Position numbers and translations under genes: made by a program. Source: Octopus vulgaris (lineage: Eukaryota). From it: a DNA stretch of 64,000 bases. Location of the stretch: the NCBI GenBank assembly GCA_951406725.2, contig OX597826.1, positions 25,482,001 to 25,546,000 on the forward strand, written 5' to 3'. A model generated the notes under the pieces. That model worked only from the letters and a program-made list of their open reading frames with translations, was not told the DNA's origin and did no database searches. Positions within the stretch are counted from its first letter, which is position 1. Each line of letters opens with the position of its first letter. This document shows, one piece after another, positions 6,929 through 54,400 of this stretch.

Positions 6929-7144
6929 CAGGCAGTGAGCTGGTAGAATCGTTAGCATGCCGGCTAAAATGCTTAGCGGCATTTCGTCCGTCTTTACGTT
7001 CTGAGTTCAAATTCCGTCGAGGTGGACGTTGCCTTTCATAATTTCGGAGTCAATAAAATAAGTACCAATTGAGAACTGCAGTCGATGTAGTCGATTAAGC
7101 ATCCTCCCCTGAAATTGCTGGCCTTGTGCTAAAATTTGAAACCA
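6929..7144 (+). mobile_element. tRNA-derived SINE, family B monomer with non-Tx1 tail (tail i)
   Basis: Head ggcagtgagctggtagaatcgttagc, B box gagttcaaattcc, Meta-domain-like gcctttcat...ataagtacc, tail ggccttgtgctaaaatttgaaacca. Confidence 0.88.
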
Positions 7145-8070: not shown

Positions 8071-8236
8071 CTATTTCTTTACTACCCACAAGGGGCTAAA
8101 CACAGAGAGGACAAACAAGGACAGACAAACGGATTAAGTGCGTAACTGGTACTTAATTTATCGACCCCGAAAGGATGAAAGGCAAAGTCGACCTCAGCGG
8201 AATTTGAACTCGGAACGTAACGACAGACGAAATACG
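8071..8236 (-). mobile_element. SINE family B (Tx1-type tail), 3' part of the copy interrupted by the LINE
   Basis: Body and tail match array units at 21001-21570; the missing head is at 13502-13564. Confidence 0.9.
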
Positions 8237-8439
8237 AATTTCTTTATTGCCCACCGGGGGCCAAACATAGATATGGACAGTACAACTGATGGGATCAGTG
8301 AATCGATATGATTTTACCGAATGGAATACACAATACAAAAACAATGCAAATGAAGCGATGATCAGGTTACGCTCCGACCCCACAAGCCCCGATCTACCGC
8401 TGATACCTTTTTTTTTTCCCGTCTATTCACACGGTTCCT

Positions 8440-11400
8440 TGCACGCACAACACTCGTGCAACATGCTTCCATCTCTTTTGGAACGTACACTCCGACAGAC
8501 ACCTCTTCTCCAGCCACAGTTTCCTTTTCAAATGAAAAGAAAAAAAAGATCGTAAATTGTGGCCAGAGATAAAGTTGCCTGTCTTAATTCCTTTTATCCT
8601 AGTCTTCCATACTGCCTCTTTTGCTATTGCTACAACCGTGAGAAAACAATTCTTACCTTCGTTCGTTAGAACTCCTGGTGGGTCAATTTTTATAATCGAC
8701 TCAGTCGACAGCTGTACTCTTCCTTCATTTCAGTTATCTCCGGACACTGAACAATAGCGTGAGGGACGGTTTCCCTGTCCCCCACGCAACTTGGACAAGT
8801 CGGCGACTGACGTTTACCATGTCTTGCGAGCTTATCCCAAACGGGCAAGGCACCTCTGTAGCATTGCCAGGTTAAGGACTTTTGGAAGTTGTCCAACGTT
8901 CTCAACCCGAATGTACGATGGAACAGGCTGTCCAGTTGAATAAATCCGAAATCTAGAGTCGACCCCAGACCATCGTCGCATTCAGACTCTACCAACCCAC
9001 TATATAAAATCCGTGTGGAACCCCCACCGGTGGCGTTGCCCGAGCGCCGGAACAGCAAGAGGGCCTTACGGCACTCTTTATGCCACTCACTCGACCTCGG
9101 TCTACGAGAACACCAGGCTTCCTGTTCGCAAAAACTCTTGAACTCAGGGAACATTTGTCTGGCTAGCGGAGACCACACCCGTTCACTATCCAGGAGAATC
9201 CAGAGGTGCCTCAACCTCAACGCATGTCTGCGCATCCTTAACCAAGGCATCCCTAAACCTCCCTTTAAAGGCTTTTGACAGCAGACAGAGCGTTTCACAA
9301 GTGGCGACCTGCCCTTCCACAAAAAGCGAAAGAGCTGTCTCTCCAACCTGATCAACCACAAATCCGGACAGGGCACGACGGTCAGGCGGTAGGTAATGAC
9401 CGATGCGATAAACACATTGGCCACCTCCGCTCTCCATTTCAGGGATAGCCACCGCCAAGACCAGGTCTTGACTACTGCAGCCACCCTGCTCAATACCTCC
9501 GTCCAGTTCTTTTCTATCTGGAGGCCTGGTCCAAACCAGACTCCCAGCAACTTAACCGGTCCCTCCGTCCAGCGCCCAACAACGCTGTCTGAAGGCATCG
9601 ACTTGCCAACCCAGGTGCCGAGCTGCAAGCCGACCGACTTTTCCCGGTTAATCTTTGCTCCTGCTACCTCCTCGTAAGCCTCAATAGTCTTACCTACTTC
9701 ACGTAGGCGTGCTACTCTGGTTACACTGATAGTGATATCATCCGCGAAAGCCGTAATAAACTCCTCTAGTCCTGGTTCTCTCGGGATGCCACTCAACCTT
9801 CGCAGTAATGGCTCGAGAGCCATCACATACAAAAGTGGTGAAAGCGGACATCCTTGACGAACCGAGCGTTTGATGCAGAACGGCTTCGAAAGGAAACCGT
9901 TCACCCGAACTATTGAGTCAATGTTGTGGTACAAAGCGATAAACCCTCTGAGGAAGCCAAGACCCAGGCCAAACCGCGCAAGTACAGTCGCTAGGTATCG
10001 ATGGTCAACCCTATCAAAAGCTTTAGACTGGTCCAAATGCACCAATGCCCCACCTTTGCCAGATTTATTACCAACCTTCTCTATGGTATAGCGAATAAGA
10101 TGGAGGGTATCCTGAATGGTTCTGCCTGGGTTGGCACATGTCTGTGCCTCCCCGACTATACCATTCGCGACACGCGCCAACCTTTTTGCTAGAACCTTGG
10201 TCAAAATCTTCACTTCTGCGTTTAACAGAGTGATGGGCCTGAAATTCTCTAGAACGTCCCCCTTATCCGGGTCCTTTCTGACCAACGTCACTACTCCCCG
10301 GCGCACAGATCTGGGGATAAACCCATTCTGTTTCCAGTTCGCGTACACGTCAGTCAGTAGTTGCCCGAACAAGTCTGGCATATATTTATACAGCTCGTAC
10401 GGAAGACCATCAAGTCCCGGCGACTTACCCGCTTTACAATCGGCCAAAGCCTCCATCACCTGCTCAGGCGTGATTGGCCCTTCGCAAGACTCCGCATCCG
10501 ACCCCGAGAGGCACGGCAGCCCGGCAAGAAAGTCCTCGAGGGCTCTCCCACCACCAGGACCGCCGTCACCTCCGAACAGCTGGACGAAGTACTCCCGAAA
10601 GACCTCACACATTTTCTCGGGTTCGTTTACCAAGACACCATTTTGATTCGTCAAAGACCGAATAGAGGAACTATTTCCTTGCCTAGCTTCCACCACTCGG
10701 GCCCATCCAGCAGCCTTGATTCCTTCACTTTCCATTGCACGTAACTTAGCTCTGGCAATACTTCCCATGTGGTGGGCTTCAAGATGCTGGTTTAACTCCA
10801 GTCTTTTCACCCTCGCTTGGTCTGCATTACCAGTCCTCCAGGCTTCTTCTAGTTCCTTAACTAGACCATCTCCTATTTTACGTCCCTTCTTAGCTAAACT
10901 TATGCAAAACCTAATAGACTCATATTTGATGGCTCTTTTTAGGGCCTACCACCACTTGTTATTAATGATGGTACTTGTTAATGCCCTCTGTATTAACATC
11001 TTGATCCGCTTTCTGTACTCCCCAATCGCCAAAAGGGACGTATTGAGTTTCCAGTAGCCAGATCCCTGTCTATGCAACTTATCTACCGTCAGTTTACAGG
11101 TAACCATCTTGTGGTCACTGTAGCTGACTAGAAAAAACTGTGGACACTCAACTATGGACTTATCTTTTTCTCTAATTAAAATCCTATCTAGATATGTTCT
11201 GGTAGACCCGTCACTATTTGACCACGTCCACTGTGGAGTGTTCGGGTGCTCCAACCTATATGAATCTGCTAGCTGAAATTGACTTAGTATATCACGAAAG
11301 CCTGGGTTACATTTTCTGTTCATGTTCGAGCTCGAGCCAACACAATCTGTGTGCTGCACATATTGTATTAAAGTCTCCTAACAGTACTAGTGAATGCGAC

Positions 11401-11794
11401 GTGGCTAGGAACTTTCCCAGGTCACGAAAATATTCAGTTTGCGGGCCAATAATGTTTGGTGCGTAAATAGTGACTAGCCTGATTGTCTTGCCACAACTGA
11501 ATGTCAGGTCAAGAACGACCAACCTGCCTTCTGGGTCAGAAAAACCAACTTTTTCTCGGCTACCCGGTTTCTTTTTAGTAGGACCAACACCCCACCCCCA
11601 CCTCCTGCCCGACTCGGAGAAACGTATTTCTCGTAGCCGTTCAGGAGGGGGAGCAGATCTCTTGGCCCCTTCACCCGGGTTTCCGTTGCAACAATTACAT
11701 CCAAATTTCTCGACCTGATGTCATTTAGAAAGCGTCCTTGCTTCCAGCTTGACATCAGGCCACGGACATTTATACAACCAATGTGAATAGACAT
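8440..11794 (-). pseudogene. LINE ORF2: APE endonuclease, reverse transcriptase and CCHC finger
   Basis: EN motifs INVRGL, ATETR, IYAPN, LGDFN, YLDRI, SDH, YWKLN split across three ORFs (two frameshifts, stop at 10946); 706-aa ORF 8690-10810 has KSPGLDG, FRPITLLN, DQSKAFDRV, RQGCPLSP, FADDI and CPSC...ETVPHAIVQC; further lesion near 8730. Confidence 0.95.
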
Positions 11795-11805
11795 GACTAA
11801 TCTGT

Positions 11806-13109
11806 TTAATCAGGATTGTCCGGAGGAGGGGGACCCTCCACCTTTTTTTGATCCAGGGTCGGAGGTGGACGGTCTTGGGAAATAGATTTGTCAAAATCCC
11901 GTCTCACCACCGACACAGAATTATCAGGTGGAGGGGGAGTCTCCACCTTTTCCTTTTCTCGCGGGATCGGGGCTGGTAATCCATGAAATATCGACTTGTT
12001 AAAATTTAATTTCATTGAAGATACTGTCTTTCTGTATTTGTTTTGTAAAATTCTATGAATCTTATTTGAGACTTCATATACGTCGTAATTGATAAATTCC
12101 TCTGAAAGGTAATCTTTTTTTTACAGTCTTTATCAGTTGAATGTCTCTCATTAGCTCAGTATCTTTAGTGTATACGGCTAGTATGCTTTTTCCTCTTCTG
12201 GCAGTCTTTTTTGGTCGTTGTTCTGTAGTAGTCGCCGCTCTCGGTTGAGTTGCTGGTTGTATTTTCCTTTTGTTTGTTGTTTTTTTCTCATCTTTTTCTT
12301 CTTTTTCTTCTTCCTCTTTGTCTTTTTTCTCCTCTTCCTCCTCTTCCTCATTTTCCTTGCAGTTCCTTCGAATGTAGTCTAATTGACCACATTAAAAAAC
12401 ATCGAGGTTTTCGACCTTCAACAAACACCACGAGGCTCTCCTCTCCTACCTCAATTGTCTCGGGAATTGCTTGAATTATTTTAGGGTCCGCTTGAATGAG
12501 GAGATTAATTGTTTGACCATCCCAGTGTGCGTTTTCGGTAGCGGTAGCCTGGAGGAGAGTAATTTTTTCTTCCTCTTTGATTAGGACTGCCACCTACAAC
12601 AACATAGCGTCCACTTCCGGTGGGACCCTTGTAATTTTTATTCTGGACGTTCTCATCCCCATATAGGTGGGAATGATCTCCTCGTCGTTCGTTTTCAGTG
12701 TTTCTACTGAGTTCTTTTGTGCTATTTCTTTATTGGTGAACCTTACTTCCACCGTTCTGAATTTCTTGCCTCTTCTCAGATAAACTACGTCGCCCCATAT
12801 TGGCTTTAAGCACTTTTCTATTTTCTCTTCTGACATTCTTTCAATTTTTCTTTTTTGTAAACAATATGTTTTGAAAATTAATGTTTTTTGTTTTTCTTGT
12901 AGTAACTTTTCCGGAGGTTCAATTTTCACAACGTTGTCAGTTATTTTCATCATTTGGCTGTATTTCATAAAGTCTCTCTTATTCGTCGAAAGCAGCCGGG
13001 TTCCACCCCCAGCTGCTAACGCAAAACTTTTTTTCTCATTTTTTGGTTCTGTCTGGATGCTAGGTACATCAATCATTCTTTTCGACACAATGCCCTTGTT
13101 CTCTGGCAA
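11806..13109 (-). pseudogene. LINE ORF1 (Tx1-type nucleic-acid-binding protein)
   Basis: ORFs 12594-13109 and 12348-12593 are in frame, separated by one TAG; frameshifted zinc knuckle CFxCGQLDYIRRNC near 12360-12405; Lys/Glu-rich and Pro-rich C-terminal part. Confidence 0.85.
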
Positions 13110-13501
13110 AGTCGGAAACTCTTCTGGTGAAACTCTTCTGACGAGCTTTCAGACACATCTCCAAAAAAATCAAATATATTATCCATTCTGCTATTCCTTC
13201 TTGTAGCGGGAGAAACCCTTATTTCCCTGTCTGTAGTTGGCTCCTCGCGGACATGTATTTCCTCCTCTGAACAGGAGAAACACATATTTCTGCTCCAACG
13301 GTAGGCTCCTTGCTAGACAACATTCTTCCCCCCAAAGGGGGAATGAACAACGCGTGCTACTACAAGCACTAAGTGTTTTCAAATGAAAACTCCAACAGTT
13401 AAGTTATTCAACAATTTAACAATAAACAACAGTTATTAGAAACAGCAGTTATTAACAATATTAACTCCAAGAAACAGTAATTTTTACCACGAACACATGT
13501 G

Positions 13502-13564
13502 CGGCAGACGAAATACGGCTACGCATTTCGTCTGACGTGCTTACGTTTCTGCCAGCTCGCCGCC
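13502..13564 (-). mobile_element. SINE family B 5' head (A-box half) upstream of the LINE
   Basis: Reads ggcggcgagctggcagaaacgtaagcacgtcagacgaaatgcgtagccgtatttcgtctgccg on the minus strand. Confidence 0.92.
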
Positions 13565-14395
13565 TTATCACCAACAGTCTGTTCTACTGGGATTTCACAC
13601 GTAAAAAAGTCAAGTGGACGGATTTGCACCGATCTCAACGACGAGCTCTCTGGTGTTAGATCAATCAAACTGAGTGTACTCGCTTATCCGGTACACTTCC
13701 ACTTATCTGGTACTCAAATAATCACAACTCTCAAGCAACCGGCACCTAGGAAAAGTAGGTGGAGGAGATAAAAGAACGAATACGTGTTGTTTATTAATCA
13801 AGAGAACTTATGCTAATTTATGCTAATTTATGTTAATTGACATTAACAGAAACTTTTAGCTCGGTGCAGCATTTTCTTTTACAGTATTTACTAGACCTGT
13901 ATGTTATCTTTTTTATGTTTTATTTTTTACTTGTTAGACTGCGACCTTGCTGGGGCACCACCTTGAAAGGCATAGTCGAACAAATCAACATTAGTACATG
14001 TTTTATTTTTGAAGTTTGGTACTAATTTTATCGGTCCCTTTTACCGAACCGCCAGTTTACAGGGACGTAAACAAACAAACATCGGTTGTCAAGTGGTGCT
14101 ACGGAAACAAACAGAATGGTACGCACACATGTATGTATGCACGTATGCATGTATGTATTATGTTGTATGTGTATATCTTTCAGCTTTTAGTCATTTGACC
14201 ACAGCCATGCTGGGGCACTACCTTGAAGATTTTTAGTCGAATGAATCGACCCCAGTATGTATTTTCCCTAAAGCTTGATACTCATCGGTCTCTCTTCCGA
14301 ACTGCTAAGTTATGGGGACGTAAACATACCAACACTGCTTAAACACAGATACAAAGATATATATATATGCTATATATATATATATATATATATAT

Positions 14396-14559
14396 AGGCG
14401 CAGGAGTGGTTGTGTGGTAAGTAGCTTGCTAACCAACCACATGGTTCCAGGTTCAGTCCCACTGCGTGGCATCTTGGGCATATGTCTTCTGCTATAGCCC
14501 CGGGTCGACCAATGCCTTGTGAGTGGATTTGGTAGACGGAAACTGAAAGAAGCCTGTCG

Positions 14560-14598
<39 letters not shown>

Positions 14599-14745
14599 TG
14601 CGGTTCGGCAAAAGAGACCGATAGAATAAGTACTGGGCTTACTAAAAGAATAAGTCCCGGGGTCGATTTGCTCGACTAAAGGCGGTGCTCCAGCATGGCC
14701 GCAGTCAAATGGCTGAAACAAGTAAAAGAGTAAAAGAGTAAAGAG
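14396..14745 (+). mobile_element. SINE family A with internal deletion
   Basis: Head, body and (gagtaaaa)n tail present. Confidence 0.9.
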
Positions 14746-15715: not shown

Positions 15716-16114
15716 AATATTTCGTCTGCCGCTACGTTCTGAGTTCAAATTCCGCCGAGGTCGACTTTGCCTTTCATCCTTTCGGGGCCGATTAAATAAG
15801 AACCAGTTATGCACTGGAGTCGATATAATCAACTTAATCCGTTTGTCTGTCCTTGTTTGTCCCATCTGTGTGTAGCCCCTTGTGGGCAGTAAAGAAATAA
15901 GAAACGTTAGCACACAGGGCGAAATGTTTAGCGGTATTTCGTCTGCCGTTACGTTCTGAGTTCAAATTCCACCGAGGTCGACTTTGCCTTTCATCCTTTC
16001 GGGGTCGATAAATTAAGTAGCAATTGCGCACTGGTGTCGATGTAATCGACTTAATACCTATGCCTGTCCTTGTTTGCCCCCTCTATGTTTAGTCCCCTGT
16101 GGGCAATAAAGAAA
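15716..16114 (+). mobile_element. SINE family B dimer (Tx1-type tails) following a family A head at 15635-15712
   Basis: Two bodies joined at aaagaaata|agaaacgttagc (~15900). Confidence 0.9.
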
Positions 16115-16254
16115 TTTATATTGTCAAACGCATACCAGTCACCATCTCACCATGTGTTTTTTTTTTCTCTCCTCTTTTTGGATACTGTGGACTATATATA
16201 TAATCGGGCGTGGCTGCTATTTCTAGTTCGTCGATTGACAATTCATAGTTCTCT

Positions 16255-17473: not shown

Positions 17474-17620
17474 ACGTTCTGAGTTCAAATTCCGCCAAGG
17501 TCGACTTTGCCTTTCAGCCCTTTCAGGTCCGATAAAATAAGTACCAGTTGAACAATGGGGTCGATATAATCGGCTCATCCCCATCTCCCCCAAGCTGCTC
17601 TTGTGGAAAAAATTTGAAAT
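17474..17620 (+). mobile_element. SINE family B, 5'-truncated, tail i
   Basis: acgttctgagttcaaattccgccaaggtcgactttgcc ... cttgtggaaaaaatttgaaat. Confidence 0.85.
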
Positions 17621-21000: not shown

Positions 21001-21570
21001 CGGCGAAATGCCTAGCGGTATTTCGTCTGCCGTTCACCCTGAGTTCAAATTCCGCTGAGGTCGACTTTGCCTTTCATCCTTTCGGGGTCGATAAATTAAG
21101 TACCAGTTACGCACTGGGATCGATATAATCGACTTAATTCGTTTGTCTGTCCTTGTTTGTCCTCTCTGTGTTTAGCCCCTTGTGGGTAGTAAAGAAATAG
21201 GTATTTCGTCTGCCGATACGTTATGAGTTCAAATTCCGCCGAGGTCGACTTTGCCTTTCATCCTTTCGGGGTCGATTAAATAAGTACCAGTTATGCACTG
21301 GGGTCGATATAATCGACGTAATCCGTTTGTCTGTCCTTGTTTGTCCTCTCTGTGTTTAGCCCCTTGTGAGTAGTTAAGAAATAGGAATTTCGTCTACCGC
21401 TACGTTCTGAGTTCAAATTCCGCCGAGGTCGATTTTGCCTTTCATCTTTTTGGGGTTCGATTAAATTAGTGCCAGTTAATCACTGGGGTCGATGTAATCG
21501 ACTTAACCCCCTTGTCTGTCCTTGTTTGTCCCCCTCTATGTTTAGCCCCTTGTGGGCAATAAAGAAATAA
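21001..21570 (+). mobile_element. SINE family B head-to-tail trimer, 184-bp period
   Basis: Units restart at gtatttcgtc (21201) and gaatttcgtc (21385) straight after aagaaatag. Confidence 0.95.
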
Positions 21571-22889: not shown

Positions 22890-23270
22890 TTTTCTACTCT
22901 TGGCACAAGGCCCGAAACTGTTTGGGGAGGGGGGGGGCAGTCGATTACATCGGCCCCAGTACACAACTCGTACTTAATTTATCGACTCGGAAAGGATGAA
23001 AGGCAAAGTCGGCCTCAGCGGAATTTGAACTCAGAACTTAAAGACAGATGAAATACCGCTCAGCCTTTCGCTCGGCGTGCTAAAGTTTCTTATTTCTTTA
23101 TTACCCACAAGGTGCTAAACATAGAGGGGACAAACATGGACAGACAAAGGGATTAAGTCGATTACATCGACCCCAGTGCGTAACTGGTACTTAATTTATT
23201 GATCCCGAAAGGATGAAAGGCAAAGTCGACCTCGGCAGAATTTGAACTCAGAACGTAACGGCAGACGTAT
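22890..23270 (-). mobile_element. SINE family B: Tx1-tailed copy abutting the head of a tail-ii copy
   Basis: Junction aaagaaata|agaaactttagcacg at ~23090. Confidence 0.88.
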
Positions 23271-23499: not shown

Positions 23500-24280
23500 G
23501 TTTCAAATCATGGTAGCAACTTTTGTGGTAGTGGGTAGGGCAAGCCGACTGCATCGGCCTCAGTATTTGATTGGTACTTATTTTATCGACTCCTAAAGGA
23601 CGAAAGCCAAAGTTGATCTCAGCAGTATTTGAACTCAGATTGCAAAGAGCTGGAAGAAATGTGACTATGTATTTTGTCCAGCATGCTAAATATTCTTATT
23701 TCTTTATTGGCCACAAGGGGCTAAACATAGAGGGGACAAAGAAGGATAGAAAAAGGGATTAAGTCGATTACACCGACCCCAGTGCGTAATTTATTGACCC
23801 CGAAAGGATGAAAGTCAAAATTGACCTCGGTGGAATCTGAATTCAGAACGTAACGACAGACGAAATACCTATTTCTTTACTACCCACAAGGGGCTAAACA
23901 CAGAGAGGACAAACAAGGACAGACAAACGGATTAAGTCGATTATATCGACCCCAGTGCGTAACAGGTACTTATTTAATCGACTCCAAAAGGATGAAAGGC
24001 AAAGTCGACCTCGGCGGAATTTGAACTCAGAACGTAGCGGCAGACGAAATACCTATTTCTTTATTACCCACAAGGGGCTAAACATAGAGGGGACAAACAA
24101 GGACAGACATAGGTATTAAGTCGTGTACATCGATCCCAGTGCGTAACTGGTACTTAATTTATCGACCCCGAAAGGATGAAAGGCAAAGTTACCTCGGCGG
24201 AATTTGAACTCAGAATGTAGCGGCAGACGAAATGCCGCTAAACATTTCGTCCGGCGTGCTAACGTTTTGGCCAGCTCACT
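23500..24280 (-). mobile_element. SINE family B: Tx1-tailed trimer (23696-24280) joined to the head of an older tail-i copy
   Basis: Internal junctions at 23869 and 24053 (184 bp apart); final junction at ~23696. Confidence 0.92.
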
Positions 24281-24292
24281 ACTTTAACAAGA

Positions 24293-24570
24293 ATCCTTTC
24301 TACTAGGGGTAGAAGGCCTGAAATTTTGAAGGCGGGGGATAATCGATTATATCGAACCCAGTGCTCAATTGGTACTCATTTCATCGACCCCGAAAGAATG
24401 AAAAATCACAGTCGATCTCGGTGGCACTTGAACTCAGAACTTAAAGACGTACGAAATGTTGCTGAACATTTTGTCCGACATGCTAAAGATTCTGCCAGCT
24501 CACCGCATTATACAACAGAAACAATAATTATTTCTACTCTAGACACAAGGCCTGAAATTTTGTGGGGAGG
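24293..24570 (-). mobile_element. SINE family B with tail ii, plus an isolated tail-ii fragment
   Basis: Tail aatttcaggcctt...tagtagaaagga; head at ~24506; tail-only piece 24530-24570. Confidence 0.8.
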
Positions 24571-29061: not shown

Positions 29062-29661
29062 CTATTTCTTTACTACCCACAAGGGGCTAAATACAGAAGA
29101 GACAAACAAGGACAGACAGACGGATTAAGTCGATTATATCGACCCCAGTGCGTAACTGGTACTTAATTTATTGACCCGGAAAGGATGAAAGGCAAAGTCG
29201 ACTTCAGCGGAATTTGAACTCAGAACGTAACGACAGATGAAATATCTATTTCTTTACTACCCACAAGGGACTAAATACAGAGGAGACAAACAAGGACAGA
29301 CAGACGGATTAAGTCGATTATATCGACCCCAGTGCGTAACTGGTACTTAATTTATCGACCCCGAAAGGATGAAAGGCAAAGTCGACTTCAGCGGAATTTG
29401 AACTCAGAACGTAACGACAGATGAAATATCTATTTCTTTACTACCCACAAGGGGCTAAACACAGAGTAGACAAACAAGGACAGACAAAGGGATTAAGTCG
29501 ATTATATCGACCCCAGTGCGTAACTGGTAATTAATTTATCGACCCCGAAAGGATGAAAGGCAAAGTCGACCTCAGCGGAATTTGAACTCACAACGTAACA
29601 ACAGACGAAATCCCGCGAAGCATTTCGCTCGGCGTGCTAACGTTTCTACCAGCTCGCCGCC
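29062..29661 (-). mobile_element. SINE family B trimer with one complete head, 184-bp period
   Basis: Junctions at 29246 and 29430; head ggcggcgagctggtagaaacgttagcacg. Confidence 0.95.
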
Positions 29662-43358: not shown

Positions 43359-44133
43359 CGAAGTCTGATCAATAAGTATCCGGACTGTTACCATAGTAAC
43401 AAAGCTAAAGCACGCAGAGTCAAGCCACATGGCAGACATTGATCTTGAACTCTGTTGTGCACGTGCACTAAGTTTTAACGTTCTAGCTCACTTGTGCTAT
43501 TTACAGCAGTGCTTGGAAGGAACATGTGTAACGTGTGATCGTCGCATTGACCACGCCAGAGAAAGTTCTCATGGCGATACCTGCTCAGATACCTGTGCAA
43601 AGTTGCAGAAAGTGTATGGAGAGGAGTGTATGAGCCGCACACAAGTGTACGAATGGTTCAGACGTTTACAAGATGGCCGAAAAAATGTCGATATTGGCGA
43701 ACGTTCTGGGAGACCAGCAACCAATAAAACTGAGAAAAACATCGCAGATATGCGAGCAGCTGTGAGAGGAAATCATCGAATCAGCATCCATGAGCTATCA
43801 GAGGATGTGCAGATTAGTTGCGGTTCAGTTCAATCCGTTATCACTTGGGTATGAGACGCGTCTCTGCCAAGTTTGAGCCAAAACTGCTTTCAGCTGATCA
43901 AAAAGACGCTTGGGTTTCAGTTGTACAAGACCTCCTTGATTGTGTCAAGAAAGCACATGGTTTCGGGTTCATTCCCACTGCATGGCACCTTAGGCAAGTG
44001 TCTTCTAATATAACCTCGTGAGTGGATTTGGTAGACAGAAACTGAAAGACGCCCGTCGGATATGTATATATATATATGTACCCTGCGTGTATGTACTATG
44101 GCAGCAGTCCGGATACTTATTGATAACACAACG
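43359..44133 (+). mobile_element. Internally deleted mariner transposon with a nested SINE A fragment
   Basis: TIRs atcaataagtatccggactg / cagtccggatacttattgat with TA flanks; VYGEECMSRTQVYEWFRR, RSGRP and LGMRRVSAKF motifs. Confidence 0.9.
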
Positions 44134-54225: not shown

Positions 54226-54400
54226 ACCGGACAAAATGTTTAGCGGCATTTCGTTCGTCTTTACGTTCTGAGTTCAAATTCCGTCGAGGTCGACTTCACC
54301 TTTCATCCTTTCGAGGTCGATAAAATAAGTACTAGTTATACACTGGGATCGATTCACCCCTCCCCCCAAATTGCTGCCCTTGTGGCAAAATTTGAAACCA
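54226..54400 (+). mobile_element. SINE family B, tail i
   Basis: Ends gcccttgtggcaaaatttgaaacca followed by (gta)n. Confidence 0.88.

Follow-up and report, generated by a model that had tools for sequence, protein, structure and literature searches.

Site-specific occurrence of an octopus L1/Tx1-group LINE in SINE heads and its probable link to a SINE with the same 3' tail

Results and Discussion

The 64,000-nucleotide stretch of Octopus vulgaris DNA analyzed here, referred to as the window (GenBank assembly GCA_951406725.2, contig OX597826.1, positions 25,482,001 to 25,546,000 of the forward strand), contains a full-length long interspersed nuclear element (LINE) of the L1/Tx1 group that lies at a defined position, site 1, in the head of a short interspersed nuclear element (SINE), and arrays of a SINE, SINE B, that shares the 3' tail of the LINE. 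The labels A, B and E to I for LINE groups and B, C and D for SINE tails were coined in the present analysis. We consider it probable that the LINE lineage is specific for site 1 and copies SINE B, and that SINE B inserts itself into its own heads and those of sister SINEs, giving rise to tandem arrays. Because SINE B has the same tail and the same insertion site as the LINE lineage, it is likely to be mobilized by that lineage, and its self-insertion would explain tens of thousands of head-to-tail SINE junctions. We infer a lineage of the stringent, target-specific type, which would recognize the tail and mobilize SINE B in trans. The original prediction for this DNA concerned the similarity of the two tails and overlooked the main feature, namely site-specific insertion in the SINE's own head, flanked by a 16-bp duplication.

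Insertion of the LINE at site 1

The window LINE (8237..13501, minus strand; 5.26 kb), assigned from its sequence and open reading frames (ORFs) to the L1/Tx1 group and to young subfamily A, stands directly between a SINE head (approximately 13565 down to 13502) and a SINE unit (8236 down to approximately 8072), and the 16-bp motifs that flank it are near-duplicates. The downstream copy of this target motif, which is site 1 of the SINE head, lies at 8221..8236 (minus), and the upstream copy at 13502..13517 (minus) is an apparent target-site duplication (TSD) that across the copies is partly LINE-borne. The 5' part of the host head, comprising the A-box-like side and carrying a GTAGCC variant, occupies 13502..13565 (minus) and has a strong predicted hairpin around the target (z -4.05). 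The rest of the host SINE B, with a B-box-like motif, a central domain with an internal deletion, and the B tail, occupies 8072..8236 (minus).

An exact LINE-type 33-mer has 68 matches in the genome, and all 68 distinct copies, 67 of them LINE and one SINE, were examined. Site 1 is occupied by 65 of the 67 LINE ends, with SINE body behind 63. The hosts of the site-1 LINEs represent three SINE families, with B, C and D tails in 54, 9 and 2 cases, respectively. Host units are 13% apart as against 2.3% for the LINE bodies, and the two sets of distances are uncorrelated (Mantel p 0.23, 36 copies). Ten young 5'-truncated copies have differing breakpoints, and nine of them abut a SINE head while one abuts an array junction. 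At many loci the host SINE's own TSD still encloses the composite of SINE and LINE, and in contigs under other organism labels the LINE end likewise continues into the SINE head, for 31 bases in X18 and for fewer in X19 and X20. At the level of sequence comparison, the copies show that insertion of the LINE lineage at site 1 in SINE heads has been repeated and independent, and that it extends over a long period.

Other arrangements occur at individual loci. Inserts of merely about 40–45 LINE-tail bases lie within the SINE head at L217 and L228, and at L045 (7035-7300) 85-bp tandem repeats of the SINE head alone are found downstream of the LINE. Two LINEs 6.4 kb apart (L084 and L085, at G000:C3:153.11 Mb) have an identical downstream flank, representing either a segmental duplication or an assembly repeat.

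The shared 3' tail

The 3' tail common to the LINE and SINE B (8238..8285, minus strand) is about 45–48 nt long and contains a predicted hairpin of 4 bp with a 5-nt loop and the motif AATAAA, without poly(A). Aligned with the last SINE unit of the array at 21017-21569, it matches in 40 of 48 columns with a score of 62, whereas 10,000 shuffles average 14.5 and never exceed 36, so that the similarity of about 40 bp described in the original prediction is borne out. The same holds for the reported end without poly(A), since none was found at the element end in any copy read. The LINE had been placed on the plus strand, whereas its ORF2 (8690-10945) lies on the minus strand and the LINE letters quoted were antisense; the SINE letters quoted do have the claimed similarity, although one G is missing from them and the array reads in the sense direction on the plus strand.

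A genome search using as query the LINE 3' untranslated region without tail and flank gave 40 scored copies, the best 30 of which were taken as loci, the window being one. The tail is present in 30 of these 30 best loci, one of them with an internal tail deletion, and among 39 longer loci the terminal part is missing from one (L057). Sister LINE families that are approximately 73–76% alike keep the tail while occupying other targets. Immediately upstream of the tail, a LINE-only hairpin (CTGA...TCAG; 8286..8298, minus) is present in all sister LINE families aligned and not in SINE B, and this LINE-only motif has 616 exact matches as against 0 in the control. Because the tail is kept in 30 of 30 copies and in sister families away from the SINE site, comparison of the copies shows it to be the LINE's own sequence, common to SINE B, and no SINE remnant; the loss of this end from other LINE copies, which the original prediction had associated with a remnant SINE tail, was not observed among the 30 best loci.

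We regard it as extremely improbable that the LINE ends in the remnant of a SINE tail, or that the LINE and the SINE downstream move as one composite transcript. Such an origin would account for the presence of a SINE behind nearly every LINE copy and for an upstream head that is partly LINE-borne, but the tail includes LINE-specific letters and persists in families with other targets, and the downstream units, drawn from three families, show five times the divergence of the LINEs. Tail retention in the 30 loci and in sister families at other targets rules out the remnant in particular, and 3' co-transduction of a LINE and its downstream SINE to new sites was rejected in that head-less truncated copies have no convincing outer TSD at the 5' junction. 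Automatic head calls in the outer-TSD script overshoot for some full-length copies, and head counts were taken from other tallies.

SINE B junctions and arrays

SINE B is a dispersed, high-copy short element with TSDs. Within the window it forms an array of three 184-bp units, each beginning at site 1 (21017..21569, plus strand), an array with site-1 junctions (23697..24249, minus), a further array of three 184-bp units (29062..29628, minus), and a dimer with a 217-bp period (15718..16115, plus) whose junction falls at a second site, located about 33 bp farther upstream within the head. Second-site junctions with 217-bp units also occur at window positions 23108 and 23714 and in L024, L028 and L100, amounting to 13 of 225 B tails examined. 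Array units begin exactly at site 1, without the first approximately 50 bases of the head, and arrays often terminate in a unit of SINE C, a sister with the same head and a different tail.

Exact matches to the B tail number 140,158 in the genome; 65,866 of them continue into AGGTA and 34,318 into the full site-1 motif. SINE C has only 2 site-1 junctions as against 6,963 C tails, the C-tail and C-junction patterns being not exactly nested. Duplications at solo SINE B insertions measure 9–23 bp, most of them 12–18 bp, and a GGT start is common (21 of 42 with a called TSD). Because the TSDs of solo B are ordinary and many start with GGT, the nicking preference looks like one for a short motif whose best match lies in the SINE head. 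The C units behind B tails do not cluster (7 of 21 nearest neighbors, compared with a shuffle mean of 8.5), and they are as divergent as solo C. That these units are mutually unrelated fits the landing of B in older hosts. A single B-C dimer master is unsupported, given the lack of clustering.

Motifs resembling the A and B boxes are visible in the SINE head. ARAGORN, applied to 30 SINE heads, finds none at the 95% threshold and 20 matches of mixed identities at 75%, and Rfam gives no transfer RNA (tRNA) match for the head.

Counter-evidence and alternative origins

Several observations, collected in this section with the alternatives on which they bear, weigh against the interpretation preferred here. 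Adjacent array units are 0.925 identical compared with 0.906 across arrays, and 14 of 36 adjacent pairs exceed the background 95th percentile; since neighboring units are somewhat more similar than units taken from separate arrays, some arrays are evidently local duplications. It is accordingly conceivable, though unlikely, that the LINE is site-specific and the SINE arrays arise mainly through local duplication or unequal crossing-over, or through re-insertion of a few read-through dimer masters. Private variants common to the units of one locus (L118, L128, L170 and L184) agree with such an origin, as do head-truncated SINE multimers in the blood clam, for which the relevant part of the source discusses unequal recombination (PMC11481361). 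Against it, the SINE junction coincides with the very base of the LINE insertion and is formed only by the SINE with the LINE tail (34,318 versus 2), the C units behind B are old and mutually unrelated, 22 of the 36 adjacent pairs do not rise above background similarity, and solo B insertions already favor GGT(A).

The tail closest to that of SINE B belongs to LINE family F, whose copies lie outside SINE heads: against 134 SINE B tails, family F has a mean score of 59.9, an older subfamily that targets SINEs has 58.8, and the window copy has 46.6. The best match, which the original prediction proposed to seek, is family F, closely followed by the older subfamily, and not the window copy, which belongs to a young subfamily whose older relatives are closer to the SINE B tail. 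Moreover, a LINE at the second SINE site gave 0 matches to one pattern, by which its absence is not shown. Both observations would agree with an origin of the SINE B tail, and of its mobility, in a sister family without SINE-head targeting, such as F, the site preference then coming from read-through bases that pair with nicked DNA and not from the endonuclease of the SINE-targeting lineage; solo B insertions with AGGT-like bases missing from the upstream duplicate (L105, L154 and L159) point the same way. However, family F copies occupy a target unrelated to the SINE head, and the older SINE-targeting subfamily has an almost equally good tail match and the same G junction as SINE B. In addition, most GGT starts occur in both TSD copies, which argues that GGT belonged to the target. 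We consider this origin improbable, somewhat more so than local duplication.

At the 5' side, 19 truncated copies have no head upstream (16 of them with the older TG junction) compared with 10 that do; our guess is that the head was lost from the 19 by deletion. The exact site-1 junction is found at only about a quarter of exact B tails. Folding of the tail, suggested in the original prediction, yields a terminal stem-loop that across 26 sequences has 94% of cells paired, with 4 pairs changed on both sides; 0 of 500 shuffles reach the observed level, and slid controls pair at 35–51%. The covariation was nevertheless scored on a structure that we named from our own fold of the same sequences, RNAalifold does not predict this hairpin, and hairpin stability is ordinary per sequence (z +0.55 to -1.5), so that support for the predicted stem-loop is moderate. 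Sequence-specific recognition of the RNA, as originally proposed, would fit the conservation of the tail, the missing poly(A), and the moderately covarying stem-loop. Finally, the proposed mechanism, including mobilization in trans and binding of the tail, is deduced from junction statistics.

A possible mechanism for the junctions

Within the 16-mer, T at position 14 is found upstream of 24 of 42 full-length LINEs and downstream of 6 of 42 (Fisher p 8e-5); not every upstream 16-mer thus copies the host. The young GTAGCC head variant precedes 35 of 39 LINEs compared with 11 of 113 unselected free heads, and it leads 3 of 8 unselected B...C arrays, whereas it precedes none of the 34 C units that immediately follow a head. 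Because of the excess of upstream position-14 T and this distribution of GTAGCC, the data fit complementary DNA (cDNA) that reaches into head sequence and would pair with the upstream head of the host; a preference for GTAGCC hosts may add to the GTAGCC excess. The idea that the GTAGCC upstream head is private to the LINE was rejected, as this head marks a subfamily of SINE B and has 18,176 exact matches.

The base next to the tail goes with the subfamily, being C in young LINEs and G in older LINEs and SINE B, and it is retained where the host base differs (L034 and L210). Because this base follows the subfamily of the element and not the host, it suggests that priming may be helped by read-through RNA. 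Such priming reportedly has a precedent in R1. For R2, co-transcription with the target is mentioned as an aid to site-specific insertion in the part of the literature drawn on here (PMC4494074).

In the mechanism that we envisage, the ORF2 protein would recognize the tail, probably through the predicted stem-loop, and its endonuclease would nick at a C|GGTA(T)-like site, best matched in the genome by the SINE head. Reverse transcription would be primed with the help of a few read-through bases, and on the 5' side the cDNA would pair with the homologous upstream head. Each SINE insertion would then add exactly one head-less 184-bp unit, and the head variant of the host could be overwritten in the process. 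Some arrays likely lengthen afterwards by local duplication.

A more far-reaching proposal, which we hold to be evenly balanced between acceptance and rejection, is a closed loop, in which the SINE head would be the preferred landing site of the very LINE whose tail the SINE stole. Self-insertion would split the promoter boxes of host copies, and pairing of the cDNA would overwrite their head variant. Two or more LINE lineages would have arrived convergently at differing offsets in this head, and the LINE junction base would have changed together with the young SINE head variant in a chase between LINE and SINE. If true, this would provide an animal element of the L1/Tx1 group that recognizes its tail strictly, and minisatellite-like arrays would have a route of origin, tens of thousands of them, through retrotransposition.

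LINE subfamilies and sister families

The tree was computed from the 83 copies with a near-complete 830-bp ORF2 segment only, and its bootstrap is not fully settled. In one supported clade, 54 of the 57 rows lie at site 1, and the copies range from old to nearly identical (end branches of 0.06 to about 0). Nested within this SINE-targeting clade is a three-copy side branch (L061, L063 and L064) that lies outside SINE heads, L064 having its own 19-bp duplication; a loss of specificity is possible. The older subfamily (L037, L053, L066 and L051) differs in the 5' region and ORF1, which are about 65% alike, with ORF2 approximately 90% alike. The far greater divergence of ORF1 and the 5' region than of ORF2 suggests that the older subfamily may have undergone a 5' swap.

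A LINE family about 73% alike (L331 and L333) also inserts into this SINE head, where it uses a third offset that lies about 12 bp upstream of site 1; it falls on a branch of the tree separate from the site-1 clade. Members of a young sister family (L277-L285, L287, L289 and L290) lie in another repeat with a duplication of approximately 15 bp, some as tandem copies about 5.2 kb apart. Additional sister families, every one of which has a repeated downstream target of its own, comprise L268, L269, L271, L273 and L312; L275, L276 and L324; and L303-L306.

Coding regions and group assignment

The window copy of the LINE is interrupted in ORF1 and in the endonuclease part of ORF2. The open part of ORF2 (8690..10945, minus strand) is a 751-amino-acid frame with domain matches to reverse transcriptase (RT; RVT_1) and a C-terminal zf-RVT, and an open fragment of ORF1 lies at 12594..13148 (minus); the homologous ORF1 of L044 contains a CCHC knuckle (zf-CCHC). 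The less broken ORF2 of L047 (1100 amino acids) has Exo_endo_phos, the apurinic/apyrimidinic-type endonuclease (APE), together with RVT_1 and zf-RVT. The nearest solved RT structure is that of human L1 ORF2p in the PDB (E about 1e-45), with R2 at 1e-21 or weaker and CR1 and RTE not among the matches. Named protein homologs of the LINE are from Argonauta and Sepia.

Features of the L1/Tx1 group are thus found in the presence of two ORFs and of an ORF2 with APE, RT and a C-terminal zinc motif. Target specificity that differs family by family, a feature of Tx1, is also present in that the sister families occupy targets of their own. Labeled Tx1 references are absent from the homolog search matches, and Tx1 is not separable from L1 by RT phylogeny here. 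In structure and targeting the window LINE appears to match the Tx1 clade, while the group assignment stays L1/Tx1.

Comparison with known systems

The Tx1-Mar LINEs and SINEU of crocodilians, in the portion of Kojima (2015; PMC4494074) drawn on here, likewise combine a Tx1-group LINE and a SINE with a common target in another repeat. The SINE is similarly less strict than the LINE, and tandem SINE insertions occur, as do SINE-like 5' heads on some LINE families. That target, however, is a third element (Mariner-N4) with a TSD sandwiched by tandem SINEs, and the link between LINE and SINE consists of target preference and common heads, whereas the octopus pair has a common 3' tail, a target in the SINE's own head, and tandem units truncated in the head at the target. 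Xenopus Tx1L in Tx1D, Keno in U2, and Kibi and Koshi in microsatellites are also site-specific APE-type LINEs whose target differs by family; the passages that treat them (PMC4494074) describe no SINE partner, whereas the octopus target is the head of an active SINE.

The stringent pairs of eel UnaL2 and zebrafish ZfL2 resemble the octopus pair in a common 3' tail with a predicted stem-loop, and pairs within the L1 clade are those of maize ZmSINE2/3 with LINE1-1_ZM and of Chlamydomonas SINEX-3 with L1-1_CR (PMC3472496, PMC3747384, PMC4176376, each drawn on in part). SINEs with L1 tails make up only 3 of 58 pairs in one survey, in the relevant part of which the named ones are plant or algal (PMC3472496). 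The octopus pair differs from these stringent pairs in belonging to the animal L1/Tx1 group, in an end without poly(A) or terminal repeats, and in being site-specific; tail binding is demonstrated for ZfL2 and is predicted for the octopus pair. In the blood clam, internal SINE units also have truncated tRNA heads, although according to the section consulted they are 3'-truncated as well and recombination is suggested (PMC11481361); the octopus tails are complete and the junction is the LINE insertion site. The feature that sets the octopus pair apart is that the target of the tail donor is the borrowing SINE itself, at genome scale.

The octopus SINEs OK, OR1 and OR2 (Ohshima and Okada 1994, as cited in portions of PMC4824008 and PMC4758252) are tRNA-type and may include SINE B or its sisters. 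No description of the present LINE and SINE pair was found in the full-text literature, a coverage that leaves Repbase, SINEBase, most subscription journals, and supplements outside.

An animal case from the L1/Tx1 group that ends without poly(A) is relevant to the question of whether strict recognition of the tail is ancestral. Sister LINEs with nearly the same tail and different targets, one subfamily being very young, form a natural series in which tail recognition and endonuclease targeting could be dissected one from the other. In addition, the pair suggests how a large class of tandem repeats may have arisen in a cephalopod genome, with at least 34,318 exact junctions, in arrays that repeat annotation would class as satellite or plain SINE.

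Other repeats in the window

Other SINEs with the same head and without the B tail lie at window positions 6967-7098, 17474-17582, 24334-24457 and 54234-54353. A different SINE-like repeat is found near 14.5 kb (14420-14740), and a fragment of a Mariner/Mos1-type transposase (HTH_48) lies at 43369-43854 on the plus strand.
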